The notes: generated by a model not told the origin, from the sequence alone. Positions 14,232 to 50,593 are shown, counted from the stretch's first letter. The stretch: DNA of 64,000 bases from an uncultured Gammaproteobacteria bacterium (GCA_964588145.1 CAZPNL010000001.1:11306-75305), one strand, 5' to 3'. A program made the numbers and translations.

Positions 14232-14308
14232 GAATTTAGACATTTAGTTTTGTCTTCAAGTATGAAGTGTGTGTGTTGCTGTTGATTATTGGGAGAAATA
14301 GAATTTAT

Positions 14309-19897: not shown

Positions 19898-19903
19898 AAA
19901 TAT

Positions 19904-21109: not shown

Positions 21110-21261
21110 GGCAATGGTAAATGGTAAAGGGAAAAAGGGAAATTTTTTACATAGTATTCCAGAAGTAGAGTTGGTTATATTATGTTATTGCGTGGCCTAG
21201 CTGTAGTGGAGCGAGTAGGTAATCTAAAAAAGCCATTTTATTGTTTGTAATAATGATTATT

Positions 21262-21294
21262 ATATTGTGAATTTGATATAGGATATTGTGAATT
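21262..21294. promoter_or_regulatory. 12-bp direct repeat atattgtgaatt x2, spaced 21 bp (two helical turns), immediately upstream of SDR gene start
   Basis: atattgtgaatt at 21262-21273 and at 21283-21294. The ATG is at 21306. Inside a 196-bp intergenic gap within an otherwise compact same-strand gene array. Confidence 0.35.
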
Positions 21295-21305
21295 GAACTT
21301 ACTGT

Positions 21306-22088: not shown

Positions 22089-22093
22089 TTTTT

Positions 22094-22903
22094 ATGAATA
22101 TTTCGAAATCAAGTTTTGATATAACCAAAAATAACCGTTTGCGCTATCAGATCGCTGAGATAGTCTATAACGCTCAAGATGGTCATATCCCAAGTGCTTA
22201 CTCCATCGTTGAAATACTTTCTGTACTTTTTGGATCGTTTCTTCGGTATGATGCCAATAATCCCAAATGGAATGAGCGTGATTTTTTTATCCTAAGTAAG
22301 GGTCACGGAAGTGTGGCTTTATATTTGATGCTTGAGAAATATGGATTTATTACAAAAAAAGACTTGGATAAAAAAGGTACGCTTCAGGGTATACTTGGTG
22401 GACATCCGGATAGAACTCGTATCCCTGGTATAGAGGCATCTACAGGGTCACTGGGGCATGGTTTTCCTATGAGTGTGGGGTTAGCATTAGGTCTCCGAAT
22501 ACAAAAACGAAATAATCGGGTTATCACAATTATAGGAGATGGAGAAAGTAATGAAGGAACCATATGGGAATCAGCTCTTTTGGCAGCACATCATATGCTT
22601 GGCAATTTGCTTGTGATTGTGGATAAAAATAAATCAACAGATGCACTGTTGTCCATCCCTGAAATGGCTAAAAAGTGGGATGCGTTTGGTTGGGAAGCAT
22701 ATGAGGTGGATGGGCATAACCAAGAAGAGTTTGCGCAGTTGCTTAATCAGTTGAAGTTTAACGATATGCGAAAACCGAAAGTAATAGTAGCACATACGAT
22801 TAAAGGAAAAGGTGTGTCATTTATTGAAAATGTAGGTTCTTGGCATTCGAAAGTCCCTAGCGCGGAAGAGTTAGATTTGATAAGGAAAGAGCTTAGAGTT
22901 TAG
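22094..22903 (+). CDS. transketolase, N-terminal (ThDP-binding) subunit
   Basis: HIPSAYSIVEIL...ILSKGHGSVALY...GSLGHGFPMSVGLALG...IGDGESNEGTIWE matches split-transketolase N-terminal sections. Confidence 0.75.
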   Translation: MNISKSSFDITKNNRLRYQIAEIVYNAQDGHIPSAYSIVEILSVLFGSFLRYDANNPKWNERDFFILSKGHGSVALYLMLEKYGFITKKDLDKKGTLQGILGGHPDRTRIPGIEASTGSLGHGFPMSVGLALGLRIQKRNNRVITIIGDGESNEGTIWESALLAAHHMLGNLLVIVDKNKSTDALLSIPEMAKKWDAFGWEAYEVDGHNQEEFAQLLNQLKFNDMRKPKVIVAHTIKGKGVSFIENVGSWHSKVPSAEELDLIRKELRV

Positions 22904-23107
22904 ATTGCGTCAGACATCACGCGTTAGGCGTCACACCAACTGAAGTATGATTTTGTCATTGCGAGGAATTGCATAGTTTTTAGCGAAGATGACGTGGCAA
23001 TCTTTTCAGGTTTCGAGTTTTGGAAGTTGAAAGTAACAATTGAACAATATAATAATTTAGCAATTTAGCTCAATTTCGACAAGGTTAATGGGGCAAGCAA
23101 TTTATTT

Positions 23108-24040
23108 ATGAGTGCATACGGAAATATACGACAAGCTTTTGCAGATACTGTATTGGAAGTTGGGAAAATTGACCCAAAACTTGTGGTGCTTGTCAGTGAT
23201 ATCACGCATTTTAAGCTTCAACCATTTGCACGGGCATGTCCAGGTAGATATTACAATTTGGGTGTTTGTGAGCAATCCATTCTATCAATGTCAGCTGGTA
23301 TGGCTATGCTTGGGTTGTATCCGGTGGTGCATACCATTACCCCGTTTCTCATTGAGCGTGGATATGAGCAAATTAAAGACGATTTTGGATATCAAAAGTT
23401 ACCTGTAAATATAATTACCGTCGGATCTTCTTTTGATTATGCACAGCTTGGTACGACACATCACTCATACGGTGATTTTGCACTGATGAAGACGATTGAA
23501 AATATGCAAATACTGTATCCTTCTACAACTCTTGAATTTAATGAACTGTTTAAGCAGTCATATAGCAATAAGATGCCAACTTATACGCGTATTCCTGGGG
23601 CTGAGCATGCAGAAATATTTCCAAAATCAAAAATAAAGTTAGGCAAGGGAATTCTTGTACGGCCAGGGAAAAAGGTAACCATTGTTGCTGTAGGAGTGCA
23701 GCTGAAGACTGTCATGGACGCCTTGAATTCGCTTTTACGGTTAAAAATAAATCCTGAGATTATTTATATACATACAGTACGACCACTGGATAGTCACATG
23801 ATCATAGAGAGCGTGAAGCGGACAAAACACTGCTTAGTTATTGAGGAACATTCTGCATATGGGGGCGTATCTGACGATGTCCTTAGAATAACGCGAAATA
23901 TGGGAAATATTCGCCATGCAAGTATCAATATTGGAGACAAATTTATTCATCATTATGGTACGTATGAGCAGATCTGTGAGCTACTTGGATTTACTCTAAA
24001 AAATGTGGTTGATACTGTCAAAAAACTTATTGAATTCTAA
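23108..24040 (+). CDS. transketolase, C-terminal (pyrimidine-binding + C-terminal domain) subunit
   Basis: Transketolase C-section architecture. Separated from the N-subunit gene by an atypical 204-bp spacer. Confidence 0.7.
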   Translation: MSAYGNIRQAFADTVLEVGKIDPKLVVLVSDITHFKLQPFARACPGRYYNLGVCEQSILSMSAGMAMLGLYPVVHTITPFLIERGYEQIKDDFGYQKLPVNIITVGSSFDYAQLGTTHHSYGDFALMKTIENMQILYPSTTLEFNELFKQSYSNKMPTYTRIPGAEHAEIFPKSKIKLGKGILVRPGKKVTIVAVGVQLKTVMDALNSLLRLKINPEIIYIHTVRPLDSHMIIESVKRTKHCLVIEEHSAYGGVSDDVLRITRNMGNIRHASINIGDKFIHHYGTYEQICELLGFTLKNVVDTVKKLIEF

Positions 24041-30253: not shown

Positions 30254-30982
30254 ATGATTACTGTGATGATACCTGCATACAATGAGGAGAAGCGACTTGC
30301 TGGTACAATAGAAAATCTTATAGTTGCATCTAAGCGTTCAGGACGAGCAAAATTAGATATTATCATTGTGAATGATGCTAGTTGTGATAATACGCAGAAT
30401 GTCATAGATCAACTTGAAAAGAAATATTCATTTGTACGTCACATTCAACACGCGAGGAATGCTGGAGTGGGTAAGGGTATCAAAGAAGCAATTGCTATAG
30501 CAAAATATGAGAAATTTATCGTGATTCCTGGAGATAATGTTGTAGCACAGGATTTGATCACGCTCCTATTTCAAAATAGAAATAAAGCTGATGTGGTTGT
30601 GAGTTATTTTCTCAACAAAGAAATACGGAGTGTGAAGCGAAATTTTATATCAGGTCTCTATACGCTCATATATGACTGTACTTTTGGCGTATATGTACAG
30701 TATCTCAACGGTGTCACGATATACCAAACTGATTTTTTAAAGAAATTATACATTCGTTCAAATCGGTTTAGTGTCATTGCAGAACTTACGATCAAATCAA
30801 TTCTTAAGGGTGCGTCGTTTCATGAAGTTTCTGGAGTCTATGTAAAAGAGGGAATGGTGGATAGTACATCATTTTCCTTAAAAAGTTTACTTGAAGTGAT
30901 TTCTATGTACATATTGATGTTGTATGAAATTAAATTTAAGCGTAAGAGGGAGTATGCAGCTGTGCCGTTTCGAATACCATAG
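30254..30982 (+). CDS. GT2 glycosyltransferase, polyprenol-phosphate-sugar synthase-like (GtrB/DPM1/CsbB-like)
   Basis: 242 aa. IPAYNEEKRL ... DIIIVNDASCDNT is a GT-A DxD-type N-terminus. Size and architecture match lipid-phosphate sugar synthases. Confidence 0.65.
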   Translation: MITVMIPAYNEEKRLAGTIENLIVASKRSGRAKLDIIIVNDASCDNTQNVIDQLEKKYSFVRHIQHARNAGVGKGIKEAIAIAKYEKFIVIPGDNVVAQDLITLLFQNRNKADVVVSYFLNKEIRSVKRNFISGLYTLIYDCTFGVYVQYLNGVTIYQTDFLKKLYIRSNRFSVIAELTIKSILKGASFHEVSGVYVKEGMVDSTSFSLKSLLEVISMYILMLYEIKFKRKREYAAVPFRIP

Positions 30983-30992
30983 ATATTTATAA

Positions 30993-31745
30993 TTATATTT
31001 TTATAATTTTGAAACACATGCCATGCCAACAATAGTGAAAGAGAGGTTCTGTTTTGATATTGTGGTGTGAAGCGAGAAATTCTTTCCAAGCTTTTTTCTC
31101 TCCAAGGTTTTCATTATTGTTAAATGCATTCCAGTCGTCAAACATGATGATGCTATTTTTTTGTAATAGGGGATATATAAAATTTAGCACCGTTTTTGCT
31201 GATTCATATAAATCGCAATCGATATTTACAATGGCAATCTTAGGAAATTTTTGTTTTTTGTGTAAAGCGGGGGTGAGAATTTTGTCATAGAAGCCTTTAA
31301 TTAAATGAATATATTTCAAATTTCCTCCGTGTTTTTTGATACTGTCACTGACAGATTCAAGCGAGCAGGCATATTGACCTTGAAAAAATTCCCCAGTGTC
31401 ATCAACATGTTTTGGTTCGGGTAGACCGCTAAATGAGTCGAATCCGAAGAGTGTCGGTTTCTGAACATATTTTTTCATGCATTCTGCTGCGTACCAAAGC
31501 GAATAGCCTTTGTAGACACCAAATTCATAGTAGGCGCCTGTTCGTAGCGTATTTAGCTTGTGTGCTGTTACAAATATTTTTTTGAGCGTAACTGGGGTAC
31601 AGGGGGTGGCTGGGCTAAATGACCCTGAAATTATATCTCTCAAAGCATCGATATGTTTAACGATGTCTATTCGTAGAGATTTTGTCACAAATGTTTTGAT
31701 TTTTCCTGCAATGTGAAGTGACGTGCAAAATATATACTTATCCAT
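30993..31745 (-). CDS. TylF/MycF-family SAM-dependent O-methyltransferase-like
   Basis: YYEFGVYKGYSLWYAAE ... IAIVNIDCDLYESAKTVLNFIYPLLQKNSIIMFDDW are TylF-family motifs. Paralog of 36195..36956. Confidence 0.6.
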   Translation of the reverse strand: MDKYIFCTSLHIAGKIKTFVTKSLRIDIVKHIDALRDIISGSFSPATPCTPVTLKKIFVTAHKLNTLRTGAYYEFGVYKGYSLWYAAECMKKYVQKPTLFGFDSFSGLPEPKHVDDTGEFFQGQYACSLESVSDSIKKHGGNLKYIHLIKGFYDKILTPALHKKQKFPKIAIVNIDCDLYESAKTVLNFIYPLLQKNSIIMFDDWNAFNNNENLGEKKAWKEFLASHHNIKTEPLFHYCWHGMCFKIIKI

Positions 31746-31863: not shown

Positions 31864-34503
31864 ATGAATCATACCATGCGAAATGTGCAAAGAATATTAT
31901 CAAATTGTTGCTTTATAGTTATTTGTTCAATTGCTTCCTATATTGTCATGTGTTTTATTATGCCAGATCTCTTTGTCTGGCATACTGTTAGTTTTATGCG
32001 ATTAGGGGATGCTGCACACAACTATCTTTCAACTTTTATGCTTGTGCAAAATGCGTTTCGGGGGGGCGTTGGACTGTGGGATTACTTTGATCAGATGCCA
32101 TTTGCATATACGTATGTGGCAGGAGGAATACAATTTGCAAATATAGTAACTGCGATATCTTATATCTTACTTTCTCGTTTTTTCTTTACGCAGTCTCATG
32201 CGTATCACACATTGTATTCTAGTCTCTATTACCTACCTTCTATTTGTGTAAATACTGCAGGTATGTATCTATTACTTCATAGATTTGTGCGTGATCGTTT
32301 GGTGATGTTTATTTCGTTAGTAGTTTCGAGTTCTCTTTATATGCCGCAAATTTTTTTGGGCCTTAGTAGTGGAAGTTTATATGTTTTTTTTCCGCTTGTA
32401 ATGCATTTTTTCTTATCACTACTGGAATCAGGTTCGATGTATTATTTTCTATTATTTGTTGTTGCTTTGGCCTTGGGGTTTGGGATGAATTTTGAAGTAG
32501 CATCGGGATATTGGTACGGAGGGATACATTATTTTTTAACTTCTGCACTGGTTTGGTATGTTGTTACGAGACGACTTAAAATACTGCATCGTTTTGGTCG
32601 AATACGATTCGCATTACGTCGTAGGCAATTGATTTTTGTAGGTGCTGCGTTTATTTGTTGTTTTTTTCTCCTGTTGCCGCTTTTGGGGTGGGGGATAGTG
32701 CTAAAGAATGATTTTAATATTTCTGATACTACGGGTAGATTTGCAAATTCTATATTTTTAAATTTCGCAGGATATTTTAATCGTGTAGGGCAGAGCTTTG
32801 CACCACCTGGTGAATTTTTAATGCGTCTCGTCAATTTTTCAGATAATCATTGGGAGTCTTCGTATATGTATATCGGATTTACTGCGGTGTTTCTTAGTAT
32901 TTGTGCACTTGTGTTTTCGAAAGATTCAAAACGATGGATATTTGCTGCAACATTATTTTGTATTTGGTGGGTGAATAGTCCTCGAGAAATGACCGGATGG
33001 CAGGCTCCAATACATTGGTTTACTGCTGTAACAAATCCTCTCAACTTTATCATACGCTCTTTTCATATGATAGGTGCTTTTATGACACCATTTTTATTTG
33101 CGACAATTGTGGGCGTCGGACTACAGTCATTAAATGATTTCAATGCAGAAGGCATGAAGAAGATGTCTATACTTAAGCTGTCTTTAGCGATGGCTTTATT
33201 ACTCGCATTTTATAGTTATGTATCAGGGCAGGTGTCTTCTGAGGTTGTTATATATCTATATCTTGGTATTGGTGCTTCTTTGATATTATTAGTTCTTAGA
33301 CTAGTGCCACTCCCACATCATGTAAAAAAAATTGTACTTTTGGTGGGCATAATAGGTTTATTTGTACGAGATGGATATTATCAGGTGGGATACCTCAGGA
33401 TCTGGACTGATCGAATGCAGGTCATAACGCATCCAATTTCTACCTCAGAAAAGGAGATAGTACTTGATTATCAAAATCCATATATATTGCCGTTGCGAAC
33501 ATATACTGACCCGGTAAATTATTTCTTGATATCAGGTCCACTTAATGTGGATGCGGTCAATAATGATGGATTTTTTTATCGCTATGCAAATATGGCGAAG
33601 TTTTATGACATACCAGATGTATATAAACCGCGACATAAATCATATACAGAGCTATACACAGATTCAAACGTTCGTAAGTATTTGCAGGCGAATCCATATC
33701 TTATATCTGTTGCAGATTATGCGTATGTTGGGCCTAGACAAGCCTTAAGTGATATTGTACAAGGCAATTCAAGTAGGAGCGTGGTGTTGCTTGATGAGGC
33801 CTCAGATGCAAAATTTCTGACGCAAACTCTTCCTGCACAGGCTTCTTTGCAGGATCAAAGCATTGAGTATAATATATATGATTTTTCATTATCGGGCGCA
33901 GCCAAATCCGCTGAGAATGATATGGATTTGTACTTTATAAAACTTCCAAATGACTTTCCTGCATATCTAGCAACTGGTGTATTTACGAAGGATATTGGAC
34001 TTATAAGTGCAAAAGTTGGCGATAAAAGCTTACATCCTCTTCAAGGTGATCTACAAATTCCATATGCTTTTGATGTACAAAATATTAAAACTGGATATGT
34101 GACGATAAGCATGCCTAAGGGAAGTGTAGTAGAACATCAAGATTTAATTCTTCGAATTCCTAAACAGTACGCTCCAAATATTCAAAAAATAGTATCAAAC
34201 ACATCTGATACTTTTACGATTGAATATGTTTCTCAAAAACCGCAGTGGCTTGTATATCATTTTCCATATGATACAAAATGGCAAGCTATTGTGGATGGGA
34301 AAGTAGAGAAATTTTATAGAGTAAATGCCAGTTTCATAGGTTTACCTCTTGATGGGGGTACACATGTAGTATCATTGCAGTACTGGCCAGACAGCTGGAT
34401 GCGACCTGCGATATTTGTACAATTTGTCTTTATCATAATGACCCCTTTTGGTTTAATAGTTTTAGGTTTGTACTTGGGAGATAAAAAAGATACAAGTATA
34501 TGA
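31864..34503 (+). CDS. YfhO-family-like large membrane glycosyltransferase (880-aa subtype)
   Basis: 879 aa. The N-terminus aligns with the 24044(-) paralog. C-terminal QWLVYHFPYDTKWQAIVDGKVEKFYRVNASFIGLPLDGGTHVVSLQYWP. Followed by a GT2 gene with an ATGA overlap. Confidence 0.55.
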   Translation: MNHTMRNVQRILSNCCFIVICSIASYIVMCFIMPDLFVWHTVSFMRLGDAAHNYLSTFMLVQNAFRGGVGLWDYFDQMPFAYTYVAGGIQFANIVTAISYILLSRFFFTQSHAYHTLYSSLYYLPSICVNTAGMYLLLHRFVRDRLVMFISLVVSSSLYMPQIFLGLSSGSLYVFFPLVMHFFLSLLESGSMYYFLLFVVALALGFGMNFEVASGYWYGGIHYFLTSALVWYVVTRRLKILHRFGRIRFALRRRQLIFVGAAFICCFFLLLPLLGWGIVLKNDFNISDTTGRFANSIFLNFAGYFNRVGQSFAPPGEFLMRLVNFSDNHWESSYMYIGFTAVFLSICALVFSKDSKRWIFAATLFCIWWVNSPREMTGWQAPIHWFTAVTNPLNFIIRSFHMIGAFMTPFLFATIVGVGLQSLNDFNAEGMKKMSILKLSLAMALLLAFYSYVSGQVSSEVVIYLYLGIGASLILLVLRLVPLPHHVKKIVLLVGIIGLFVRDGYYQVGYLRIWTDRMQVITHPISTSEKEIVLDYQNPYILPLRTYTDPVNYFLISGPLNVDAVNNDGFFYRYANMAKFYDIPDVYKPRHKSYTELYTDSNVRKYLQANPYLISVADYAYVGPRQALSDIVQGNSSRSVVLLDEASDAKFLTQTLPAQASLQDQSIEYNIYDFSLSGAAKSAENDMDLYFIKLPNDFPAYLATGVFTKDIGLISAKVGDKSLHPLQGDLQIPYAFDVQNIKTGYVTISMPKGSVVEHQDLILRIPKQYAPNIQKIVSNTSDTFTIEYVSQKPQWLVYHFPYDTKWQAIVDGKVEKFYRVNASFIGLPLDGGTHVVSLQYWPDSWMRPAIFVQFVFIIMTPFGLIVLGLYLGDKKDTSI

Positions 34504-35219
34504 GTACCATCGGTAAAAAGAAAACAAAATCTTTGTCAGTGAGCATATTTGTTCCTGCATACAATGAGCAGGGCAATATCACAGAAGCATTACATACGAT
34601 AGAAAAGTATTCTCAAAGTCTAAAGGAATATGAAATTATCGTTATCGATGATGGGAGTACTGACAATACTTCACTGGAGCTTGCTAAGTATGCCAAAGGT
34701 AATAGGCGTATACGTATCATACGAAATACTACTAATTTAGGGATTGGCGCGGGACTGCGACTCGCATTATCTAAGGCTTGTTATGAATATTTTTCGGTAT
34801 TTCCTGGTGATAATGATATGGCAGGATGGTCACTTGAAGATCTTTTTGTAGGATATGGGAAAACTGATCTCATAGTTGCTTATCCTCGGGATGTATCGGT
34901 GCGAGGACTTGGACGGATGATCCTTTCTTCATTTTTTGTTTTACTAATGAATGTTTGCTCAGGAGTTACGTTGAAATATTATAATGGCCCTTTTGTTTGT
35001 AAAACTGGCGATCTATCACGCATTCGACTTGTGGCAAATGGATATCTGATATATGCAGAGCTAAAAGTTAAACTTATCCTACAGGGTGCAACTGTTACTG
35101 AAATACCATTTGATCACGTAGGAAGAAAATATGGAGTTTCAAAGGCAATAACATCTAAAACCGTATTGGAAACGTTGTCAGTATTTTTTCATTTGCTTCG
35201 TTATAGACTATGGAATTAG
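34500..35219 (+). CDS. GT2 glycosyltransferase, polyprenol-phosphate-sugar synthase-like
   Basis: SIFVPAYNEQGNI ... IIVIDDGSTDNT. 239 aa. Confidence 0.65.
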   Translation: MSTIGKKKTKSLSVSIFVPAYNEQGNITEALHTIEKYSQSLKEYEIIVIDDGSTDNTSLELAKYAKGNRRIRIIRNTTNLGIGAGLRLALSKACYEYFSVFPGDNDMAGWSLEDLFVGYGKTDLIVAYPRDVSVRGLGRMILSSFFVLLMNVCSGVTLKYYNGPFVCKTGDLSRIRLVANGYLIYAELKVKLILQGATVTEIPFDHVGRKYGVSKAITSKTVLETLSVFFHLLRYRLWN

Positions 35220-35689
35220 TACTCGTAGTGTTAATTTGGATTTGTACCGCTTTGCTTCATGTGCTGATTCATAAATGTATAAAGTCTTATTTTGGCACAA
35301 TACGTTTTGCTTCTATGGGAGTATATGTATTTGGCCTGGTGCTACTTTTTTTATTGCTAGATTTTTCTCAAATTAGATATTCATTGTCAGCTTTTTATAT
35401 ATTATTGACTATTATTTATGGCTTGTACTATACGGTGAGTATTAAAGATTATGGGAGCCCGACATCAAAAATAATGATGCTTCTACGATCACAACCTATG
35501 ACGTATGCAGAAATCAAGAAGCATTTTTCAGTCAAGGAGCTTCTTTTGGGAAGATTTGACGACTTATGCACCTCCCAACTTGTGTCTGTAAATAATGGAA
35601 AAGTGTATGTAAGCAATAGGGGACGATATGTAGTTTGGCTGATACGTATACACAGGAAAATAATGGGGATTACGGGGTATGGATCTTAA
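35210..35689 (+). CDS. small membrane protein: 3 TM helices + C-terminal winged-helix-like domain (paralog family, member 1 of 4)
   Basis: Three hydrophobic helices (residues ~3-21, 33-50, 59-76). These are followed by SKIMMLLRSQPMTYAEIKKHFSVKELLLGRFDDLCTSQLVSVNNGKVYVSNRG, a wHTH-like pattern. Confidence 0.55.
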   Translation: MELVLVVLIWICTALLHVLIHKCIKSYFGTIRFASMGVYVFGLVLLFLLLDFSQIRYSLSAFYILLTIIYGLYYTVSIKDYGSPTSKIMMLLRSQPMTYAEIKKHFSVKELLLGRFDDLCTSQLVSVNNGKVYVSNRGRYVVWLIRIHRKIMGITGYGS

Positions 35690-36179
35690 TATATTCCTTA
35701 GTTCATTTGTAGGTGTGATTATATTTTATGTATTTTTAATCGTGTTTATGCGTAACAGAGTTCCTATGTTACGCGCACTTATATTTTCAACGGTGATAAG
35801 TGAGATAGTGGGAGTATTTAGTTTGTATTTACTTTTATTTCAGATGTCATTGGTGCTTCAGAATATGATCGTTGCGTATATACTCGTATTTATGGTAATA
35901 GGTATGGGTGTTTTTGTATATGTTGTAGGGTTTTTTGGTATTATGACAACCTCTATACGATTAGAGTTGTTGATGCGATTATATGGGAAAGGCAGTTTAA
36001 ACTGTACTCAACGCGCCATAGAATCCATTTGTTCAGTAGATTGGCTTTTGCACTCCAGATTAAACACGCTTGTACAGTCAGGTGATATCAGTTTAGACAA
36101 TGGTACTTATAGAAATAATATAAAAGTAAATTTTTTTGTGATCAATGACATCCTTATACGTTTTTTTCGAACATTGTAG
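35679..36179 (+). CDS. small membrane protein: 3 TM helices + C-terminal winged-helix-like domain (member 2 of 4)
   Basis: Same architecture. The C-terminal part is TSIRLELLMRLYGKGSLNCTQRAIESICSVDWLLHSRLNTLVQSGDISLDNGTY. Overlaps the upstream paralog by 11 bp. Confidence 0.55.
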   Translation: MDLNIFLSSFVGVIIFYVFLIVFMRNRVPMLRALIFSTVISEIVGVFSLYLLLFQMSLVLQNMIVAYILVFMVIGMGVFVYVVGFFGIMTTSIRLELLMRLYGKGSLNCTQRAIESICSVDWLLHSRLNTLVQSGDISLDNGTYRNNIKVNFFVINDILIRFFRTL

Positions 36180-36194
36180 TGCTAGGGTATATTC

Positions 36195-36956
36195 TTAAAT
36201 CGTAAGCACTCTCATGGCTTGACCATGCCAGCAATATGTAAAGGCTATTTCATAGGTAAATGATTTATGCTTTTGTATAAATTCGTTGAAAGCACGTTTT
36301 TCGCCTCTGTTGTGGTCATTGCCAAATGAATTCCAGTCATCAAACAAGAGGAGCGTATTTTTTTTCAAAAGAGGTTTGATAAAATCTAGAACGAGGCTTG
36401 TTGACGTATATAAATCGCAATCAATATTTATGATTGCAGCTGGAGGGAGATGTAATGATTTATATAAAGTTTTAGTTAGAGTTGTATCATAATACCCTTC
36501 GATAAGATGAATATTTGATAAATTTCCTCCCTTTGAGAGAATATTTTCCCTTGTGGATTGTAACGATTGAGAAAATTGGCCTTCGTAAAATTCTCCATTG
36601 TCATCTGCTTTCGGTATTTTTGGTAGACCTTTAAAAGAGTCAAACCCGTAGAGTTGTGGATTTTTGTATCCTGACTTAAGTAATTGTTTATACATTTTCC
36701 AGATTGTATAGCCTTTATAAACTCCAAATTCATAATATGCGGCATTGTCCAGTGTTTGGTACTTGTTTGCATATGAAATGCTTTGGTTCACAATTGCTGG
36801 AGCACAAGGATTTGCTGGGCTAAATTTTGAAGATATTTTTTCTCTAACACTATCAAATATACGAATGCGTTGATCGTGAGGAAAAATACCAGTTTTTGAA
36901 ATAATTTTTGTTACTATTCCTAAATAATGGAGAACTGTGCAAAAAAAGTAATTCAT
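36195..36956 (-). CDS. TylF/MycF-family SAM-dependent O-methyltransferase-like
   Basis: YYEFGVYKGYTIWKMY ... AIINIDCDLYTSTSLVLDFIKPLLKKNTLLLFDDW. About 50% identical to 30993..31745(-). Confidence 0.6.
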   Translation of the reverse strand: MNYFFCTVLHYLGIVTKIISKTGIFPHDQRIRIFDSVREKISSKFSPANPCAPAIVNQSISYANKYQTLDNAAYYEFGVYKGYTIWKMYKQLLKSGYKNPQLYGFDSFKGLPKIPKADDNGEFYEGQFSQSLQSTRENILSKGGNLSNIHLIEGYYDTTLTKTLYKSLHLPPAAIINIDCDLYTSTSLVLDFIKPLLKKNTLLLFDDWNSFGNDHNRGEKRAFNEFIQKHKSFTYEIAFTYCWHGQAMRVLTI

Positions 36957-37198
36957 GAAAAGATGAGATGATAGAGAAGTTGTGATTGTCTAAATAAAGT
37001 TAAAAAGTATAATATTAATCAATTTTAAAATAATATCATATATTTAAATCTTTGGACTATGGAGAAAAAATATATCATCTGTAGTATAAATTATTGCCTA
37101 TTCATAAGATTTTACCTTGCTGGTTATATACCTAAATAGCATAATTTGATAGTATTAACTGATATTATTTTTGAATTTTAAAGAGTATCAACGATTAT

Positions 37199-37912
37199 AT
37201 GAAATCAGGTGGAATCAGTATTATTGTGCCAGCTTATAATGAGGAGCATAATATAGGGCATGCTCTAGAGCAGGTTTTGAAGACTGTCAAGTCGGTTAAA
37301 AGTGAAATAATTGTAGTTGACGATGGCAGTATAGATGGTACGGCAAAAGTAGCAAAAGAATATCAGAAAAAATATTCTCAGATAAAATATCTCAGAAATG
37401 ATACAAATCAAGGATTTGGTAAAACGTTTAAACATGGACTGACTGAAGCTAAAATGGAATATGTGACAGGATATCCAGCAGATGCAGATACAGATATTCA
37501 CCTGCTTGAGCAACTTATAGATTTGCGAAAAAAGGCCGATCTGGTAATAGGCGTGATGGATAGGAGAAAAAATCGCACTTTGGCGCGTGGATTATTATCA
37601 GGTTTATATATTGGTATCATGAATACTCTTTTTGGCATCCATTTATCCTATTACAACGGGTATTTTATTTGTAAAACAAAATTGTTACAAAGCACTCGAT
37701 TGGCAAGCGAGGGATTTACAATTTTTGCGGAGGCAAAAGTGCGACTCCTCCGTATGGGGAAAAGTTATATAGAAATTCCGTGTATTCATGTGGGTCGTGC
37801 ACATGGGAGCTCAAAGGCGCTCTCTCCAAAAAGTCTTGTGCAGGCTGTCAAAAATTTATTTGTTCTTATCTACGAGGTGCGCATACTGCCCCTGCTTGCT
37901 CCGAGGGTATGA
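37199..37912 (+). CDS. GT2 glycosyltransferase, polyprenol-phosphate-sugar synthase-like
   Basis: SIIVPAYNEEHNIGHAL ... IIVVDDGSIDGTAKVA. 237 aa. Confidence 0.65.
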   Translation: MKSGGISIIVPAYNEEHNIGHALEQVLKTVKSVKSEIIVVDDGSIDGTAKVAKEYQKKYSQIKYLRNDTNQGFGKTFKHGLTEAKMEYVTGYPADADTDIHLLEQLIDLRKKADLVIGVMDRRKNRTLARGLLSGLYIGIMNTLFGIHLSYYNGYFICKTKLLQSTRLASEGFTIFAEAKVRLLRMGKSYIEIPCIHVGRAHGSSKALSPKSLVQAVKNLFVLIYEVRILPLLAPRV

Positions 37913-38424
37913 GTATGTTTTATTGGTATGGTATAACGTCGCTATGGTGTGCATTGACGTTTATTTGTCATATATTTCTCTATCGTTATTTTTTGCATCA
38001 TAAGATTTCTGTCAGTTATTCCTATTTAATACTAGTAGGATGTTTTGTCGGATTTGGTGGTGTTTTGTGGTTGCTGTATATATTTTCCTTACCTCATGAA
38101 GATGTATATCCGCTTAGTTCAATATTGTTTTACATAGGCATTATTGCTTTTTATTTTATATATCTTCAGAGTGCACTTTTGGGAGAGGAGAGTCCGTCTG
38201 GGAAAATTATGGATTTTATATCGACTCATCCGAACACAACAAAAGAAAAAATTACCAGAATTTTTGAAGGGAGCACACTTACTGAATCTCGTTTGGAGCA
38301 ATTGCTCGATGGTGGATTTATACGAAATCAGAAAGCTCGATATATTATTACTTATAAAGGTGCCAAAATAGTATGGTTTTTTGAAGTATTTAAAAAAATA
38401 TTTGGGCTTACTGATGGTGGGTAA
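37909..38424 (+). CDS. small membrane protein: 3 TM helices + C-terminal winged-helix-like domain (member 3 of 4)
   Basis: ATG 37909 overlaps the GT2 stop (ATGA) and is in frame with the track ORF 37780..38424. The C-terminal part is GKIMDFISTHPNTTKEKITRIFEGSTLTESRLEQLLDGGFIRNQKARYIITYKG. Confidence 0.55.
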   Translation: MSMFYWYGITSLWCALTFICHIFLYRYFLHHKISVSYSYLILVGCFVGFGGVLWLLYIFSLPHEDVYPLSSILFYIGIIAFYFIYLQSALLGEESPSGKIMDFISTHPNTTKEKITRIFEGSTLTESRLEQLLDGGFIRNQKARYIITYKGAKIVWFFEVFKKIFGLTDGG

Positions 38425-38425
38425 T

Positions 38426-38947
38426 ATGGATGTATTTATTACTATTTTGACAATTAGTATCGTTATACTATTTTTATTGGTACAGCTGGTGGTGCACAGG
38501 GTATTTTCGCAGAAAAATGTCATTCGGCTGATACTAGTGTCATACTGCATAACTTTATTGGTTAGCATTTTCGTATGCGTTGGGTATATTTTGATGCGTT
38601 TTATTGAAATACAGAGTTTTAGCGTGTGGATGGCGATTGGAGTTTCATTCTTTTTGGGTTCACTTTGGATTCTTGACTATATTACCGGTTTTTTTGGATT
38701 ACCAATTTCTTCTCTTCGTATCAAATTACTGAGCGATATTGCCCGTGCCGGAGACAGAGGAATCTCTGATAAAAAGCTACTGTCAGGGTATAACAAAAAA
38801 GAAATTATTGCGGTACGGCTAGACAGGCTTGTGCGGGCGGGGGAGCTTGTGGAAAATAAGGGTTCGTATGTGTTAACACGTGGATATTCATATTTGCGTT
38901 TGCATGCATTCATGCACCGTGTACTTCGACGTGTATATAATGGGTAA
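38426..38947 (+). CDS. small membrane protein: 3 TM helices + C-terminal winged-helix-like domain (member 4 of 4)
   Basis: ATG 38426 lies 1 nt after the upstream stop. MDVFITILTISIVILFLL... The C-terminal part is LRIKLLSDIARAGDRGISDKKLLSGYNKKEIIAVRLDRLVRAGELVENKGSYVLTRG. Confidence 0.55.
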   Translation: MDVFITILTISIVILFLLVQLVVHRVFSQKNVIRLILVSYCITLLVSIFVCVGYILMRFIEIQSFSVWMAIGVSFFLGSLWILDYITGFFGLPISSLRIKLLSDIARAGDRGISDKKLLSGYNKKEIIAVRLDRLVRAGELVENKGSYVLTRGYSYLRLHAFMHRVLRRVYNG

Positions 38948-40583
38948 CACTGCCATGAGGCAATCACAAAATTCTATCCGTCATATAGGAATAGATCTGG
39001 ACAATACGATCATTTTTTATGACGCTGCATTTTGGCGCTATGGGAGGCTACTTTATGACATGCCTAAGGATGTGCCAGTTCAAAAATTAGCTATTCGTAC
39101 TTGGTTTCGTTCTCAGCCACAAGGTGAGGCAAAATGGACTGCCCTACAGGGGTATGTCTATACACAGGGTATATCAGCTGCAAACATAGCCCCTGGCGTC
39201 ATAGAATTTATAAAAGAGGCTCAAAAAAGAAACATACCTGTTTCTATCGTTAGTCATAAGACCATGTATCCTGCTGTTGGGTCACGGATAGATATGCGAC
39301 AGAAAGCAGTTGATTTTTTAGAAACCCAAGGCGTTTTGGAGGTGTTAGGTTCAGTAAGTGCTATATATTTTGCTGATAGTCGGACACAAAAAATTACAAC
39401 GATTAGAGATATTGGGTGTGATGTATTTATAGATGATTTGCCAGAAGTTTATAGCGAAAAGATTTTTCCAGTTTATATAAAAAAAATCCTGTTGTCAGGT
39501 CAGAAGATTTCGCAGGAAGGTGTCTCTGTTTGTGCAGATTGGCAAGAAGTGTATTCTGTAGTGTTTGGTAGCGAGCAAGATATGGCGCACGTTTCTCATA
39601 TATGTGTGCGTCAGTTGTCAGGTTTTTTGTATGCGAGGCCACTTACTCCAAGTTTAAATTGTCGGGTGTATGAAGCTATATGCGAATCTGGATCATATCT
39701 TGTAAAAAGGTATAACACCTATGAGGGTGACAAAAGAAATAGATTACATACTGAATACCAGGCATTAACGTTTTTGAAAAAGTGTGGTGAGCGTTGGGTG
39801 CCGGCTCCAGTAGCGCTTGATGCAGCTAATAATATAGGGATATATGAGTTTTTACATGGGGAAAATTTACGGGAAAAATCTGTAACAAATAAACAAGTTG
39901 ATTTGCTTTTGTCCTTTGTCACGCGACTTCGAGATTATTCAAAAGTTCCTGAGGCAAAAGATTTATCAAGTGCATCTGAAGCAAGTTTCTCCATAAAACA
40001 ATATATAAAGCAGGTGGAGAGGCGAATGAAAATCTTTAAAAACGTGCAAGCTGCTTCTACCTTAGAGGGCGAATTTATTCAGTTTGTTCAGCAAAAGTTG
40101 CAACCGTTGTGGTCTGAAATATTGGTATATGTATATGAAAAATGCAAAGAGCGTCATATTGTGATAGACGCGCAGTTTTCAAAAGAAGATTTATTATTAT
40201 CACCTTCGGATTTTGGGTTTCATAACTGTTTACAGACTAGCGATGGATTGTATTTTATTGATTATGAATATTTTGGTTGGGATGATTCTGTTAAGCTCAT
40301 TGCAGATCTACTTCTTCATCCTGCTATGAAGCTCACAAAGACTCAGAAAAAATTTATTCGATCGACGCTTCTGGCGAAATTTACTACAACAGAGGTGGAA
40401 CAGCGTTTTGACATGGTGTATCTGATGTTGTCGATCAAATGGATTTGTATTATGTTGAATTGTTTTACAAGGATGCATGTTGGTCAAGAGTCAGAAAATA
40501 TGTGTTCGCGTCAACTCAGGCTTGCTCAGTTGCATCTTGCCCGTACAGTGGTAGAATTTCAGAAGCTAGTTCAGGGTGCTTAA
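38940..40583 (+). CDS. HAD-superfamily hydrolase domain fused to APH/choline-kinase-like phosphotransferase domain
   Basis: N-terminal IGIDLDNTIIFYD is a HAD motif I (DxDxT). C-terminal SDFGFHNCL and IDYEYFGWDD match the HxDxxxxN and D-x-E catalytic and Mg-binding motifs of the aminoglycoside/choline kinase family. The start is ambiguous between ATG 38940 and 38955. Confidence 0.5.
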   Translation: MGNTAMRQSQNSIRHIGIDLDNTIIFYDAAFWRYGRLLYDMPKDVPVQKLAIRTWFRSQPQGEAKWTALQGYVYTQGISAANIAPGVIEFIKEAQKRNIPVSIVSHKTMYPAVGSRIDMRQKAVDFLETQGVLEVLGSVSAIYFADSRTQKITTIRDIGCDVFIDDLPEVYSEKIFPVYIKKILLSGQKISQEGVSVCADWQEVYSVVFGSEQDMAHVSHICVRQLSGFLYARPLTPSLNCRVYEAICESGSYLVKRYNTYEGDKRNRLHTEYQALTFLKKCGERWVPAPVALDAANNIGIYEFLHGENLREKSVTNKQVDLLLSFVTRLRDYSKVPEAKDLSSASEASFSIKQYIKQVERRMKIFKNVQAASTLEGEFIQFVQQKLQPLWSEILVYVYEKCKERHIVIDAQFSKEDLLLSPSDFGFHNCLQTSDGLYFIDYEYFGWDDSVKLIADLLLHPAMKLTKTQKKFIRSTLLAKFTTTEVEQRFDMVYLMLSIKWICIMLNCFTRMHVGQESENMCSRQLRLAQLHLARTVVEFQKLVQGA

Positions 40584-40589: not shown

Positions 40590-41432
40590 ATGAAATATCA
40601 AATAGGTGATGAACATCGGCAGGTATTAGATTCCGTTTCTTTGCAACTGCGTCAGGAAATTTTGCATGTAGTTGATAAATCTCGTCGTGGACACATTGCA
40701 TCTGCTTTTTCGCTCGTTGAGATTATGCGGGTATTGTATACAACAATACTTAATGTAGATCCCAAGAATTCTAAGTGGTCAGCACGTGATAGATTCATTC
40801 TCAGCAAAGGACATGGCTGTTTAGCCCAATATATCATGCTTGCAGAGCGTGGATTTATAACTCGCGAGCAACTCTATAATTTTTGTATGTTTGATTCAAT
40901 TTTGGGAGGGCATCCGGATGCTCGTAAAATTCCAGGTGTTGAGGCCAGTACGGGGGCTTTGGCACACGGTTTATCTATAGGTATGGGGTATGCTCTGTCT
41001 GCACGCATGGATGAGCGTGCATTTCGCACTTTTGTCATCATAAGTGATGGCGAATGCCACGAGGGTTCCACTTGGGAGGCTGCTTTATCGATCGCTAAAT
41101 ATAATCTAACAAATATTATTACGATCATGGACTACAATAAAATGCATAGTTATGGACAGGGGAGTCAAATTCTCAATATCGAGCCGCTTACAGATAAATG
41201 GAATAGTTTTGGTTTTGGCGTTACAGAAGTCAATGGTCATAGTGTAAAAGATTTAGAGAAGGCGTTTCGAAAAGCATTGGTTCGAAGAGATAAGCCGCAA
41301 ATTATTATTGCGCATACTGTAAAAGGGAAGGGTGTACACGGGGTAGAGGATAATCCAAAATGGCATCATAAAGCGAAAATTAGTGATGAAGAGATGAAGT
41401 TATTGGTTGAAGGCTTGGAGATTAGGTTATAG
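40590..41432 (+). CDS. transketolase, N-terminal (ThDP-binding) subunit (second copy)
   Basis: HIASAFSLVEIM ... ILSKGHGCLAQY ... GALAHGLSIGMGYAL ... ISDGECHEGSTWE. Confidence 0.75.
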   Translation: MKYQIGDEHRQVLDSVSLQLRQEILHVVDKSRRGHIASAFSLVEIMRVLYTTILNVDPKNSKWSARDRFILSKGHGCLAQYIMLAERGFITREQLYNFCMFDSILGGHPDARKIPGVEASTGALAHGLSIGMGYALSARMDERAFRTFVIISDGECHEGSTWEAALSIAKYNLTNIITIMDYNKMHSYGQGSQILNIEPLTDKWNSFGFGVTEVNGHSVKDLEKAFRKALVRRDKPQIIIAHTVKGKGVHGVEDNPKWHHKAKISDEEMKLLVEGLEIRL

Positions 41433-41532
41433 CCTGGTGGGCTGTAGCTCGTAGCCTGTAGGAAGATAGCCAGTAGCCAGTAAGAAAGTAGCCATTAGGA
41501 AGGTAGCTGGTTAGCATGTAGCGGGTAGCTGG
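41430..41532. repeat. degenerate 7-8-bp tandem repeat (TAGCNNG / TARGAAGN units, ~13 units, ~22-bp higher-order period) in the spacer between transketolase N and C subunit genes
   Basis: Read directly: tagcctgg tgggctg tagctcg tagcctg taggaaga tagccag tagccag taagaaag tagccat taggaagg tagctggt tagcatg tagcggg tagctgg. It begins at the TK-N stop codon. TAG recurs in all three plus-strand frames. Confidence 0.6.
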
Positions 41533-41664
41533 TGAAGGGCGAAGCGGAAGTAAACATTACTATATTTGAATGAGGCAGTAGGATTCTACTTATAAAGTGA
41601 TTTTACATATTTAAAGTTGGATTGAAAGTTTGCATTTTAATAGTTGCATGTTGCATTTCTAATT

Positions 41665-42642
41665 ATGCGTAAAACAGTACTGACTGAAACTTATAAATTA
41701 GCAAAAAAAGATAAACGTGTGGTGTTTGTTGGCTCAGACTTGGGAGCAGGGACACTTGACGAGTTTAAAAAAGAAATGCCTGAGCGGTTTTTTATGGAAG
41801 GCGTGTCCGAACAACACATCATTGGACAAATGGCTGGTATGGCTACCAATGGAAAAATTCCATTCTTTAATACCATCGCTGTTTTTTTGACACGTCGATG
41901 TCTCGAGCAAATTATTATTGATGTGGCTTTGCCAAATTTGCCTGTGCGACTTCTGGGAAGTGGTGGAGGACTTGTCTATGCACCGCTTGGGCCTACACAT
42001 CTAGCTATCGATGATATTTCCATAATGCGAGGGATACCAAATATGACCATACTGGTGCCTGCTGATGCTACGGAGATGGAACGGCTAATGCCACAAACAC
42101 TTGAGCATCGTGGACCAATTTATATTCGTATAGCTAAAGGGGGAGACCCAGTGGTAACCCCACCTGATATGCCTTGTATTATCGGGAGAGGAATGCCTAT
42201 GAAAAAAGGCGAAGATGTATTACTCATTAGTACAGGGACTACATTACAATTGGCGATTGAGGCAGCCTCAATATTAAAACTAGATAGTATCGATGCGGCA
42301 GTGCTCCATATGCCAACTATAAAACCTTTTGATCGAGAGCTTGTGGTAGATATGGCTGCCAAGGTGCGAGGGATTGTTACAATTGAAGAGGCATTTGTCC
42401 ATGGAGGATTAGGTTCTGTCGTAAGTGAAGTTGTGGCTGATGCGCGGTATAGTAAGCCAAAGCCAATACTGCGGATAGGGATTCCTGATGTATTCCCTGA
42501 TAAATATGGTTCGCAATCTCAACTTTTGGCATACTACGGCATAACGACAGAGAGAGTTGTTGATGCAGCCAAGAGACTTATAGGTAATGAAACGACTATG
42601 ATTGCGCGATCAAACGTAAGAAAAAAACCCATAAAGCGTTAA
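41665..42642 (+). CDS. transketolase, C-terminal subunit (second copy)
   Basis: MRKTVLTETYKLAKKDKRVVFVGSDLG aligns with the N-terminus of 23108..24040. ATG 41665 is preferred over the TTG 41644 track start. Confidence 0.7.
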   Translation: MRKTVLTETYKLAKKDKRVVFVGSDLGAGTLDEFKKEMPERFFMEGVSEQHIIGQMAGMATNGKIPFFNTIAVFLTRRCLEQIIIDVALPNLPVRLLGSGGGLVYAPLGPTHLAIDDISIMRGIPNMTILVPADATEMERLMPQTLEHRGPIYIRIAKGGDPVVTPPDMPCIIGRGMPMKKGEDVLLISTGTTLQLAIEAASILKLDSIDAAVLHMPTIKPFDRELVVDMAAKVRGIVTIEEAFVHGGLGSVVSEVVADARYSKPKPILRIGIPDVFPDKYGSQSQLLAYYGITTERVVDAAKRLIGNETTMIARSNVRKKPIKR

Positions 42643-49300: not shown

Positions 49301-50593
49301 ATGAGGGTACAAAGGTATATAAATTTTTCATCAAAATTTATACTTCTTTTATTGTTTTTTTTGGTCGTGGGAATTGCGCTCAGGCTGTTTATGCTTTTGT
49401 ATGCCACTACGGCACTCATGTGGGACAGTTGGATTAATAGTGATTATGCGGTGCAGCTGATGACTGGGCATGTAATCGCTGACCCACGCGATCGTAATTT
49501 GGGATATTCTGCTTTTTTAATGATCGTCTATGCATTTTTTGGTTATGAAAATATATACGCAGTACAGATCGTGCAGGTATTGCTCGACGTATATATTGGA
49601 ATTATTATTTTTACTACCACAGCTGGGATGTTTTCAAAAAAAATTGCGAGTTACTCATTTGCCTTGTACATGATCAATCCATACACAGCATCTTACACTG
49701 GGATGATATTTTCTGAGATTTTTACTATATTTTTATTTTGCTCTACTGCGTATGTCATTAGTCTTGAACAGTTTCGGTATCAAGTTCGCTTGTGGATACT
49801 ATACGGTTTTTTGTTGGGCTGGATAATATTTGTGCGACAGCAGTTTGTGTTTTTTTCTTTTTTTATATCATTTGTGATAGGTATTTTGGTAATACCCAAA
49901 AAGAAAATTATATTATTTCTTTTGTCAACCTATATTTCTCTTCTTGTGGCAAACAGCTATACGCTCTACTCGTATTGGTACAACTATAAACAGATTTCAT
50001 TATCGCCTCCGTATAATGTAAAAAATGCTGCACTGTATCTGATGTTTGAGATGTCTCGTCAAACGCCATCTCTGATAGACGATAAAAGTGGAACAGGTTA
50101 TTTTTCTCGTATGGACGATGCATATGTGCATATTGTAAATGAGTATTATGCTACTCCTCTTGAGCAGATGAGTGCATTTCAAGATAAATATACTACGTTA
50201 TTTATAGAAAGATTGCGTTTGGACTGGCAAGTATTTGTCACAAGGATTATTCGAAATGTGTTTTTGATTTGGGATAAATATTATCTGTGGTATTACGTTG
50301 ACGAGTGGTATCCGATAGACAAAATTCCTGTGCGATTGGGTAATATTGTGTATGTAGGAATTAGTTTTTTGGGACTTTTACGTATTTGGCTTTTTAATGT
50401 GAGATTGCGTCGTCATCCAGTCACGGTTTTTAGTTTAGGTATGGTGCTATATATGACGATTGTGTTTAGTCTCGTGTCATCGGAGCCTAGGCATACGCTC
50501 GCATATTATGGTATATGCGCAATTTGGCTTGGGTATCAGGTGCGCGAATTTGTGCAGCATTTGCCTCAGTGGGGGTTCAGGTCGAATGTGTAG
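49301..50593 (+). CDS. polytopic membrane GT-C-like protein (ArnT/PMT-like first loop)
   Basis: 430 aa with ~11 TM helices. First loop MWDSWINSDYAVQLMTGH resembles the DE-x-RYA-x-I-A-x-x-M pattern. Confidence 0.45.
   Translation: MRVQRYINFSSKFILLLLFFLVVGIALRLFMLLYATTALMWDSWINSDYAVQLMTGHVIADPRDRNLGYSAFLMIVYAFFGYENIYAVQIVQVLLDVYIGIIIFTTTAGMFSKKIASYSFALYMINPYTASYTGMIFSEIFTIFLFCSTAYVISLEQFRYQVRLWILYGFLLGWIIFVRQQFVFFSFFISFVIGILVIPKKKIILFLLSTYISLLVANSYTLYSYWYNYKQISLSPPYNVKNAALYLMFEMSRQTPSLIDDKSGTGYFSRMDDAYVHIVNEYYATPLEQMSAFQDKYTTLFIERLRLDWQVFVTRIIRNVFLIWDKYYLWYYVDEWYPIDKIPVRLGNIVYVGISFLGLLRIWLFNVRLRRHPVTVFSLGMVLYMTIVFSLVSSEPRHTLAYYGICAIWLGYQVREFVQHLPQWGFRSNV

Follow-up and report, generated by a model that had tools for sequence, protein, structure and literature searches.

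Paired small membrane proteins with winged-helix domains encoded beside polyprenyl-phosphate sugar synthase-like glycosyltransferases

Membrane partners of polyprenyl-phosphate glycosyltransferases in described systems

Small membrane proteins of the GtrA/GtcA type are encoded together with a GtrB/CsbB/ArnC-type glycosyltransferase of family 2 (GT2) and a glycosyltransferase of the GT-C type, and the three constitute three-component glycosylation systems (PMC7389260, PMC5836110, PMC8035078). Here we analyze a 64,000-nucleotide stretch of DNA from an uncultured Gammaproteobacteria bacterium (GCA_964588145.1, CAZPNL010000001.1:11306-75305; hereafter, the window, with positions counted from its first letter), in which two short GT2 genes are each followed by a tandem pair of genes for small proteins, denoted A and B, that consist of three transmembrane (TM) helices and a C-terminal winged-helix domain.

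ArnE and ArnF form a tandem pair of small paralogues and, like GtrA/GtcA, are putative flippases of polyprenyl-phosphate sugars. As in GtrA/GtcA, these proteins have three to four TM helices in about 120 residues and no soluble domain, and their GT2 partner has TM helices of its own; the A and B proteins of the window, unlike GtrA, are 159-173 residues long and combine three TM helices with a winged helix of about 80 residues. In the type III dolichol-phosphate-mannose synthase of P. furiosus (PfDPMS), as in GtrB and ArnC, enzyme and membrane part form one polypeptide. The TM domain of PfDPMS, which consists of 2+2 helices, is GtrA-like and may flip the product (PMC5526996, PMC12992685); its two hairpins are pseudo-symmetric, with halves that are similar in sequence, and are not needed for catalysis (PMC5526996). 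The GT2s of the window match the catalytic domain of PfDPMS and ArnC and stop where the TM domain begins, and the membrane part would here be represented by two separate 3-TM proteins.

A different arrangement is that of GacI and GacJ, which form a complex in which GacJ stimulates GacI, the latter being still membrane-associated and active when alone; Rv3632 stimulates PpgS, and fusions of DUF2304 with GT2 exist (bioRxiv 10.1101/180810). The TM helices of Rv3632 (residues 4-21, 30-48 and 68-85; PMC6487176) are spaced in a manner resembling A and B. Like A and B, GacJ and Rv3632 are small 3-TM proteins encoded directly after a TM-less polyprenyl-phosphate GT2 of about 230-240 residues that serves a GT-C enzyme. 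However, GacJ is a single protein of about 113 residues that has no cytoplasmic domain, in contrast to the paralogous A and B, each of which has 160-180 residues and a winged helix; the GacI/GacJ system, moreover, has a separate Wzx-like flippase, GacK, and the fusions known for DUF2304 and GT2 have no counterpart among the A/B loci. DPM1, the GT2 subunit of the type II dolichyl-phosphate mannose synthase of eukaryotes (including humans), needs DPM3, the cytoplasmic C-terminal part of which tethers DPM1 (PMC5526996). Like the GT2s described here, DPM1 lacks TM helices and relies on two separately encoded small membrane proteins, DPM2 and DPM3; these are, however, eukaryotic proteins of 80-90 residues with two TM helices each and no winged helix, and neither has a Pfam match in A or B, with their three TM helices and 160-180 residues.

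The C-terminal domain of A and B has the same fold as the HTH_45, MarR, PadR and ArsR-like winged helices but differs from these in being joined directly to a TM helix and in occurring in obligate hetero-pairs beside enzymes. The combination of three TM helices and a winged helix in an obligate hetero-pair was not found described in the literature or databases searched. A and B are a new pair of protein families in a known type of slot, and, by analogy, the system they belong to may work like the CsbB/GtrB-GtcA/GtrA-YfhO/GtrC, GacI/GacJ and DPM1/2/3 systems.

Two families encoded in fixed order beside short GT2 genes

A sequence-only reading of the window had drawn attention to four small open reading frames (ORFs) starting at 35210, 35679, 37909 and 38426, all of which were confirmed, on the plus strand. 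Together with the preceding genes, they form two copies of a GT2-A-B unit on that strand (unit 1, GT2a/A1/B1; unit 2, GT2b/A2/B2; Table 1). The junctions are tight. The stop codon of GT2a (35217-35219) follows the start of A1 (35210), with an overlap of 10 nucleotides, and A1 and B1 overlap by 11 nucleotides; GT2b and A2 share the four nucleotides ATGA (37909-37912), whereas A2 (stop ending at 38424) and B2 (ATG at 38426) are separated by a single nucleotide, with GGTGGG located 5' of the B2 start. The start at 38426 was preferred over longer variants with TTG or ATG starts because the N-terminal Met-Asp is conserved in the family. The description of two tandem pairs, each directly following a GT2 gene with a start/stop overlap, is thus accurate.

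The same reading treated the four proteins as alike paralogues. The architecture is indeed shared by all four, but they are not equivalent. A1 and A2 are 28% identical (E = 1e-10), as are B1 and B2 (E = 1e-8), whereas the similarity between A and B is marginal in pairwise comparison and is detected by profile-profile alignment (hhalign probability 85%, E = 6e-6). In searches with hidden Markov models (HMMs), A1 scored 184 bits with the A-family HMM vs. 7 bits with the B HMM, and B1 matched B proteins of other loci with E from 1e-10 to 1e-18. Judged by these comparisons, the four ORFs represent two distantly related families (A1/A2 and B1/B2) whose similarity is above chance, and the pair is an obligate one, A followed by B.

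Word-indexed protein searches started with A2, with a 4-sequence alignment or with a 60-sequence alignment returned essentially self matches only. The family was found when 1.84 billion cluster representatives were searched exhaustively (HMMER) with a profile of the four ORFs. At E <= 1e-3, 1082 representatives (of clusters at 50% identity) matched, of which 127 also passed E <= 1e-10, and nearly all of the matches aligned end to end and were 155-195 residues long. The best 150 relatives split cleanly into 18 A-type and 132 B-type proteins when scored with HMMs derived from known upstream and downstream partners. Spurious ORFs and mere hydrophobic similarity are ruled out by the 1082 full-length relatives together with the conserved synteny. 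Among 60 family members, there was no meaningful Pfam or NCBIfam match; the PHROGs search gave nothing, none of the source databases has a name for the family members, and we found no paper linking a winged helix to this kind of glycosylation system. GtrA (PF04138) and DUF2304 (PF10066) had no match at E <= 1 with the four proteins, at E <= 0.01 with the 60 members or at E <= 10 with the family consensus, for GtrA also with the TM-only parts. These Pfam results rule out ordinary membership of A and B in either family and agree with the sequence-only reading, which could not tie the proteins to a described family. As far as these searches reach, the A and B families are widespread, large and newly recognized, with no Pfam or NCBIfam model of their own.

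The two families are distinguished by their motifs. A proteins have H..H(R/K) in TM1, LGEESPSxKI following TM3, an invariant Arg that opens helix 3 of the winged-helix domain and YRxxLGWxxGG at the C-terminus, whereas B proteins have an N-terminal M-D, HxxxFR in TM1, YIL..FG...SSxRIRLL extending from TM3 into the soluble domain, YN, RLxRLxxSGE and GxY. Taken over both families, this Arg is nearly invariant. Two features of the termini were also observed. The A-type proteins end with Gly-Gly in 63 of the 71 non-redundant loci (89%; positions 38416-38421 in A2), with the last Gly invariant in the 18-sequence alignment and A1, which ends with GYGS, an exception; the B-type proteins almost always start with Met-Asp.

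The predicted structures conform to the architecture proposed in the sequence-only reading. The AlphaFold2 (AF2) model of B2, based on a 112-sequence alignment (predicted local distance difference test, pLDDT, 90.4; predicted TM score, pTM, 0.72), contains long helices at residues 2-26, 29-57 and 64-111, followed by helices at 115-121 and 125-137, strands at 141-144 and 147-150 and a helix at 156-171. The model of A2, based on an 18-sequence alignment (pLDDT 86.7), contains helices at 2-30, 35-60 and 69-90, then a short GEESPS loop after TM3 and the same order of three helices, hairpin and helix as in B2. In both models, the C-terminal 75-80 residues adopt the winged-helix fold, i.e. H1-H2-H3-beta hairpin with a PadR-like extra helix. 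Because TM3 runs continuously into the first helix of this domain in B2, and only a 5-residue loop intervenes in A, the domain is tied to the membrane with no linker between them. The best Foldseek matches were all winged helices, albeit with E of 0.1-1, and no full-length structural match to the A or B proteins was found with Foldseek; the fold also resembles winged helices that bind proteins, such as those of ScpB, RPA32C, APC2 and the dimerization domains of O-methyltransferases. The consensus of the A-family C-terminal domain scored 31.7 bits with the Pfam model HTH_45 (PF14947; threshold 25.5 bits), whereas A2 itself remained below the threshold (21.6 bits); for the B family, neither the proteins nor the consensus matched an HTH model of Pfam.

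The C-terminal domains are basic (median net charge +9 in B and +6 in A). In both families, the loop between TM1 and TM2 contains 2.4-3.0 Lys and Arg residues, and the N-terminus is acidic or uncharged. This distribution of charges places the N-terminus outside and the TM1-TM2 loop and the C-terminal domain inside, so that both winged helices would be cytoplasmic and A and B would be parallel in the membrane. The conserved polar residues are located at the ends of the TM helices, and the membrane core contains no conserved charged or polar residue. Sequence searches of the PDB with the A and B profiles produced insignificant matches only. The best one for the B profile, between the lipid III flippase WzxE (9g95, residues 280-371) and profile positions 24-108, lies in the TM region and, with E = 0.13, was not significant and was rejected as evidence.

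The adjacent GT2s are 41% identical to each other (GT2a vs. GT2b). The best PDB match of GT2b is PfDPMS (5mlz), with residues 4-223 aligned to residues 23-246 of 374; GT2b ends ahead of the PfDPMS TM domain and has no hydrophobic segment. GT2a has a single such segment, at residues 140-159, within the catalytic domain. Beyond the end of the catalytic-domain model, there are no residues in GT2a and at most 8 in GT2b, and neither has a C-terminal TM segment. A profile of 21 GT2s from such units aligns with PfDPMS over positions 3-226 (E = 7e-26; to residue 248 of 374) and with ArnC over positions 3-217 (to residue 221 of 322). End-to-end alignment with this profile was restricted to the polyprenyl-phosphate GT2s, i.e. 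PfDPMS, ArnC and GtrB; other GT2s match the first 105-140 positions only, i.e. the nucleotide-binding part. From this pattern of alignment, we infer that the GT2s of the units are polyprenyl-phosphate sugar synthases. Among the genome-derived loci, none of the 20 adjacent GT2s examined has a C-terminal TM segment; in 19, the chain extends at most 20 residues past the catalytic-domain model, and in the remaining one, 42 residues. Over all surveyed loci, 30 of the 33 adjacent GT2s consist of the catalytic domain only, and no C-terminal TM segment is present in these wherever the C-terminus lies on the contig, whereas the canonical GT2s of 313-328 residues in the same loci have two. The earlier assignment of the two unit GT2s to the GtrB/CsbB type fits the polyprenyl-phosphate class inferred here, but they are not ordinary GtrB/CsbB proteins, given their length of 237-239 residues and the lack of C-terminal TM helices.

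To survey gene neighborhoods, we scanned genomes and metagenomes with a 43-bit degenerate DNA pattern of the B motif, which identified 29 loci in species-representative genomes and 64 loci in metagenomes. The genome loci come from Candidatus Omnitrophota (11) and Gottesmanbacteria/Patescibacteria (4) and from metagenome-assembled genomes labeled uncultured Planctomycetales (7), Gammaproteobacteria (5) and 'uncultured bacterium' (2); the pooled, de-duplicated set comprises 84 B genes. In five metagenomic contexts, A was followed by B in all five, and a short GT2 gene was located directly 5' of A in all three contigs that were long enough (L002, L003 and L004). Across the 73 non-redundant loci with available DNA, A is directly upstream of B in 71. 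The two exceptions, L078 (B gene at 4573-5196, minus strand) and L079 (3581-4105, minus strand), lack an A gene 5' of B. The reading frame that precedes B in L079 does not resemble A proteins, and the next gene after B is YfhO-like. These two may be B-only variants or cases of gene loss.

Like GtrA and GtcA, A and B are encoded with a polyprenyl-phosphate GT2 and a GT-C-like gene. A DPMS-like GT2 gene is directly adjacent in 33 of the 44 pairs with at least 600 nucleotides on both sides, being upstream in 28 and downstream in 7, with 2 pairs flanked on both sides. Both GT2-A-B and A-B-GT2 orders occur, and it is thus the trio that is conserved; homologues of the pair do adjoin GT2 genes, but they do not always follow them, with about a quarter of the pairs having no adjacent GT2. 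Directly downstream of B, a polytopic ORF (at least 380 residues and at least 6 TM helices) is present in 26 of the 50 loci with at least 1.5 kb available, and within 3.5 kb in 38 of the 50. The association with GT2 and GT-C genes, on which the sequence-only reading had staked its proposal beforehand, thus holds in the homologous loci. The polytopic neighbors that could be classified are YfhO-like (about 860-880 residues) or PMT_2-like (about 420 residues; homologues of the window ORF at 49301), and other downstream polytopic proteins, of 700-750 residues, are unclassified. Homologues of the YfhO-like protein of the window adjoin A-B pairs in L002, L025, L031, L064, L076 and L079. The window ORF 49301-50593 (430 residues, about 7 TM helices, no Pfam match) follows a 265-residue GT2, and its homologues are located directly downstream of B in L009, L016, L017, L022, L029 and L034; a homologue in L004, encoded elsewhere on its contig, has a PMT_2 match. 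From these similarities, the ORF 49301 family is probably a small GT-C family poorly detected by Pfam.

Distances are correlated among GT2, A and B: their matrices gave Pearson r of 0.87-0.90 but a Spearman coefficient of only 0.45-0.52 (Mantel p about 5e-4), with a contribution from shared phylogeny. Each of the two window units is nearer to units of other organisms than to the other, which indicates old lineages rather than a recent duplication; judging from these distances, the two are probably old, sugar-specific lineages.

A candidate membrane subunit of a split synthase and the competing explanations

Strict A-B pairing, tight gene junctions, parallel topology and remote paralogy jointly suggest that A and B form a pseudo-symmetric heterodimer with six TM helices and two winged helices. 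Since the associated GT2s lack the membrane domain of GtrB/CsbB, a role of this heterodimer as an anchor or activator, similar to GacJ or DPM2/DPM3, appears at least as likely as a role as a flippase. Our preferred reading, held tentatively and a little short of evenly balanced, is that the synthase of the polyprenyl-phosphate sugar is split, with the A/B heterodimer as its membrane subunit in the manner of GacJ/DUF2304 or DPM2/DPM3. It draws further on the adjacency and TM-less form of the GT2 partners, on their co-divergence with A and B and on the resemblance of the C-terminal domain to protein-binding winged helices, with GacI/GacJ, PpgS/Rv3632, DPM1 and PfDPMS as precedents. As a computational analysis leads us to infer heterodimer formation, docking of the GT2 and lipid handling, the arrangement would be as follows. 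A and B, anciently diverged paralogues, would lie side by side in the inner membrane, with 3+3 TM helices, the N-termini outside and the C-termini inside, and with the basic winged helices on the cytoplasmic membrane surface. The winged helices, along with the C-terminal helices, would dock the soluble GT2, usually encoded just upstream, and the lipid phosphate would be contacted by conserved His, Arg, Ser and Lys residues clustered where TM1 and TM3 reach the cytoplasm. The TM bundle would hold or present the lipid-phosphate acceptor and hand the product on to the YfhO/PMT_2-like GT-C enzyme, which would then glycosylate a surface polymer or a protein outside the membrane.

Several observations weigh against this reading. 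In L023, L045 and L087, the A-B pair directly follows a full-length GtrB/ArnC-like GT2 (Table 1); because these enzymes carry TM helices of their own, anchoring cannot be the sole role of A and B. In the quarter or so of the pairs that have no adjacent GT2, a YfhO-like or other large polytopic gene directly follows, and sugar-modifying genes are located upstream. Conversely, the TM-less GT2s of the window at 30254 and 63237 have no adjacent A/B pair, and neither does the GT2 at 48496 (265 residues, about two hydrophobic segments). Unlike the case of DUF2304 and GacI, no GT2-A, A-B or B-GT-C fusion was found in about 95 loci, and, in the Pfam comparisons of both the proteins and the consensus, there was no sequence similarity to DUF2304, DPM2 or DPM3.

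Part of this evidence is compatible with transport of the product. An A/B heterodimer that acts as a polyprenyl-phosphate sugar flippase, replacing GtrA/GtcA or ArnE/ArnF and linked to the synthase through its winged helices, is the main rival reading, less probable than the preferred one yet a serious possibility. The pair often sits between the GT2 gene and a GT-C-like gene; A-B also occurs with the TM-bearing GtrB-like GT2s, for which no anchor is needed, and before YfhO-like genes without an adjacent GT2. No GtrA or Wzx-type match was found in the Pfam scan of 54 window proteins (a scan that left out four ORFs of at least 150 residues, at 14267, 16759, 17825 and, on the minus strand, 3-716) despite the presence of five DPMS-like GT2s and about 17 GT-C-like proteins. 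ArnE and ArnF, likewise, are two small tandem paralogues. The GtrA-like TM domain of PfDPMS has been found to bind flipped dolichyl-phosphate mannose (Dol-P-Man; PMC12992685). On the other hand, the polar residues conserved in A and B are confined to the helix ends rather than the membrane core, the proteins have no similarity to GtrA, SMR or MOP flippases (the WzxE match included), and six TM helices in a parallel dimer would make a small translocation unit. Furthermore, flipping alone leaves the preference for TM-less GT2 partners unexplained, and any of several polytopic window proteins without Pfam matches could be the flippase instead. The docking and flipping roles are compatible, and one complex may perform both, as proposed for the PfDPMS TM domain. 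A more far-reaching version, which we consider rather unlikely, would make A and B an unrecognized class of translocators, with the winged helices clamping the soluble synthase into a channeled synthase-flippase complex that replaces GtrA/Wzx in Omnitrophota, Patescibacteria and their relatives.

Two further explanations, both of low probability, assign the pair to neither synthesis nor transport. As a scaffold, A/B would connect the cytoplasmic GT2 with the GT-C enzyme, or aid insertion or stability of the latter, and would take no direct part in catalysis or flipping. This would fit the GT-C-like gene found directly downstream in half of the loci, the A-B-YfhO arrangements without an adjacent GT2, and the B genes that occur alone in L078 and L079, in the latter case directly before a YfhO-like gene. 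We regard this as improbable: the GT-C partners downstream come from several families (YfhO-like, about 870 residues; PMT_2-like, about 420; unclassified, 700-750), whereas the GT2 partner comes from one clade, and unit 2 of the window is followed by a kinase-like gene, not by a GT-C gene. More improbable still is that A and B are membrane-tethered transcription factors, a form of the regulator option left open by the sequence-only reading. On this view, a signal from the membrane or the lipid carrier would alter expression of the glycosylation locus through DNA binding by the winged helix-turn-helix domains. The strongly basic C-terminal domains and the nearly invariant Arg at the start of helix 3 in both families would suit DNA binding, but winged helices often bind protein or RNA rather than DNA, and those of A and B are tied directly to the membrane. 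The genes lie in mid-operon, in translational coupling with the enzyme gene, a second copy of the pair, again with its GT2, is present in the same locus, and the trio is kept across phyla whatever the surrounding genes. No palindrome or operator is common to the two upstream intergenic regions, where the only repeats were AT-rich ones attributable to chance and not shared between the two, and promoter- and terminator-like sites occur there at the frequency expected from shuffled sequence. Strict A-B pairing, too, speaks against the regulator option. We return to a membrane subunit of a split synthase as the preferred reading.

The surrounding locus and the significance of the A/B pair

Upstream of unit 1, the stop codon of a YfhO-like gene overlaps the GT2a start (Table 1), and its product is a likely periplasmic user of the lipid-linked sugar. 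A third enzyme of the same clade as GT2a and GT2b, denoted GT2c, scores 162 bits with the HMM of the unit GT2s and shares 31% identity with GT2a and GT2b; the next gene encodes a methyltransferase on the minus strand. In the context of this window, one TylF-like methyltransferase gene is located ahead of each unit, and the two proteins are 46% identical. A protein of about 560 residues with an APH-type phosphotransferase domain is encoded directly 3' of B2 (38880-40583, the longest ORF overlapping the end of B2); judging by this domain, the pathway may employ it as a sugar or lipid kinase.

Table 1 Genes of the two GT2-A-B units, their neighbors in the window and full-length GT2s that precede A-B pairs in other loci.
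Feature	Location	Strand	Description
GT2a	34500..35219	+	239 residues; catalytic-domain-only GT2 of the polyprenyl-phosphate (DPMS/ArnC/GtrB-like) type; Pfam Glycos_transf_2, E = 1.6e-21
A1	35210..35689	+	159 residues; A-type, predicted 3 TM helices and cytoplasmic winged helix
B1	35679..36179	+	166 residues; B-type, predicted 3 TM helices and cytoplasmic winged helix; divergent member of the family
GT2b	37199..37912	+	237 residues; TM-less, catalytic-domain-only DPMS/ArnC/GtrB-like GT2; Pfam Glycos_transf_2, E = 4e-27
A2	37909..38424	+	171 residues; A-type, 3 TM helices and winged helix; C-terminus Gly-Gly
B2	38426..38947	+	173 residues; B-type, 3 TM helices and winged helix; typical of the family
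YfhO-like GT-C membrane glycosyltransferase	31864..34503	+	879 residues; about 12 hydrophobic segments/TM helices; Pfam YfhO, E = 1.8e-11
GT2c	30254..30982	+	242 residues; third TM-less DPMS-like GT2, same clade; no A/B pair of its own
TylF-like sugar O-methyltransferase	36195..36956	-	Pfam TylF and Methyltransf_24; divergent, upstream of unit 2
TylF-like methyltransferase paralogue	30993-31745	-	Precedes unit 1
Full-length GT2 before A-B, L023	5688-6626	-	311-335 residues (range for the three), two C-terminal TM helices
Full-length GT2 before A-B, L045	10014-11018	-	As for L023
Full-length GT2 before A-B, L087	1860-2792	+	As for L023

The entire window (1-64000) is a glycosylation island, with about 17 large polytopic proteins, several of which are of the GT-C type (PMT_2/YfhO) and many of which have no Pfam match. 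There are five short DPMS-like GT2 genes, at 30254, 34500, 37199, 48496 and 63237. The last of these, which is TM-less (232 residues), ends at 63935, and a new ORF that begins at about 63939 is cut by the window end. Split transketolase-like genes are also present, with the N-terminal part encoded at 22094 and 40590 and the pyrimidine-binding and C-terminal part at 18797, 23108 and 41644; beside these genes (18797-24040 and 40590-42642), there are genes for C-methyltransferase-like proteins, short-chain dehydrogenases/reductases, epimerases and many S-adenosylmethionine-dependent methyltransferases. This gene set suggests the production of unusual branched or methylated sugars. The GC skew is positive in every 2-kb bin of the window (0.10-0.25), most genes are on the plus strand, and the GC content is about 34-44%.

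The making of polyprenyl-phosphate monosaccharides and their transfer across the membrane are poorly understood: GtrA/GtcA proteins have been assigned their flippase role by inference, and the mechanism by which GacJ/DUF2304 proteins stimulate their enzymes is still to be explained. The A/B pair is a structurally distinct partner that contributes a folded cytoplasmic domain, a candidate for docking that is directly testable. The family comprises more than 1000 clusters at 50% identity and is concentrated in uncultivated Omnitrophota and Patescibacteria, the surface chemistry of which is almost unknown. The order short GT2, A, B, GT-C provides a simple genomic marker of lipid-linked glycosylation modules. 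With A and B, the range of winged-helix functions widens to include a domain fixed to the membrane that probably binds protein.

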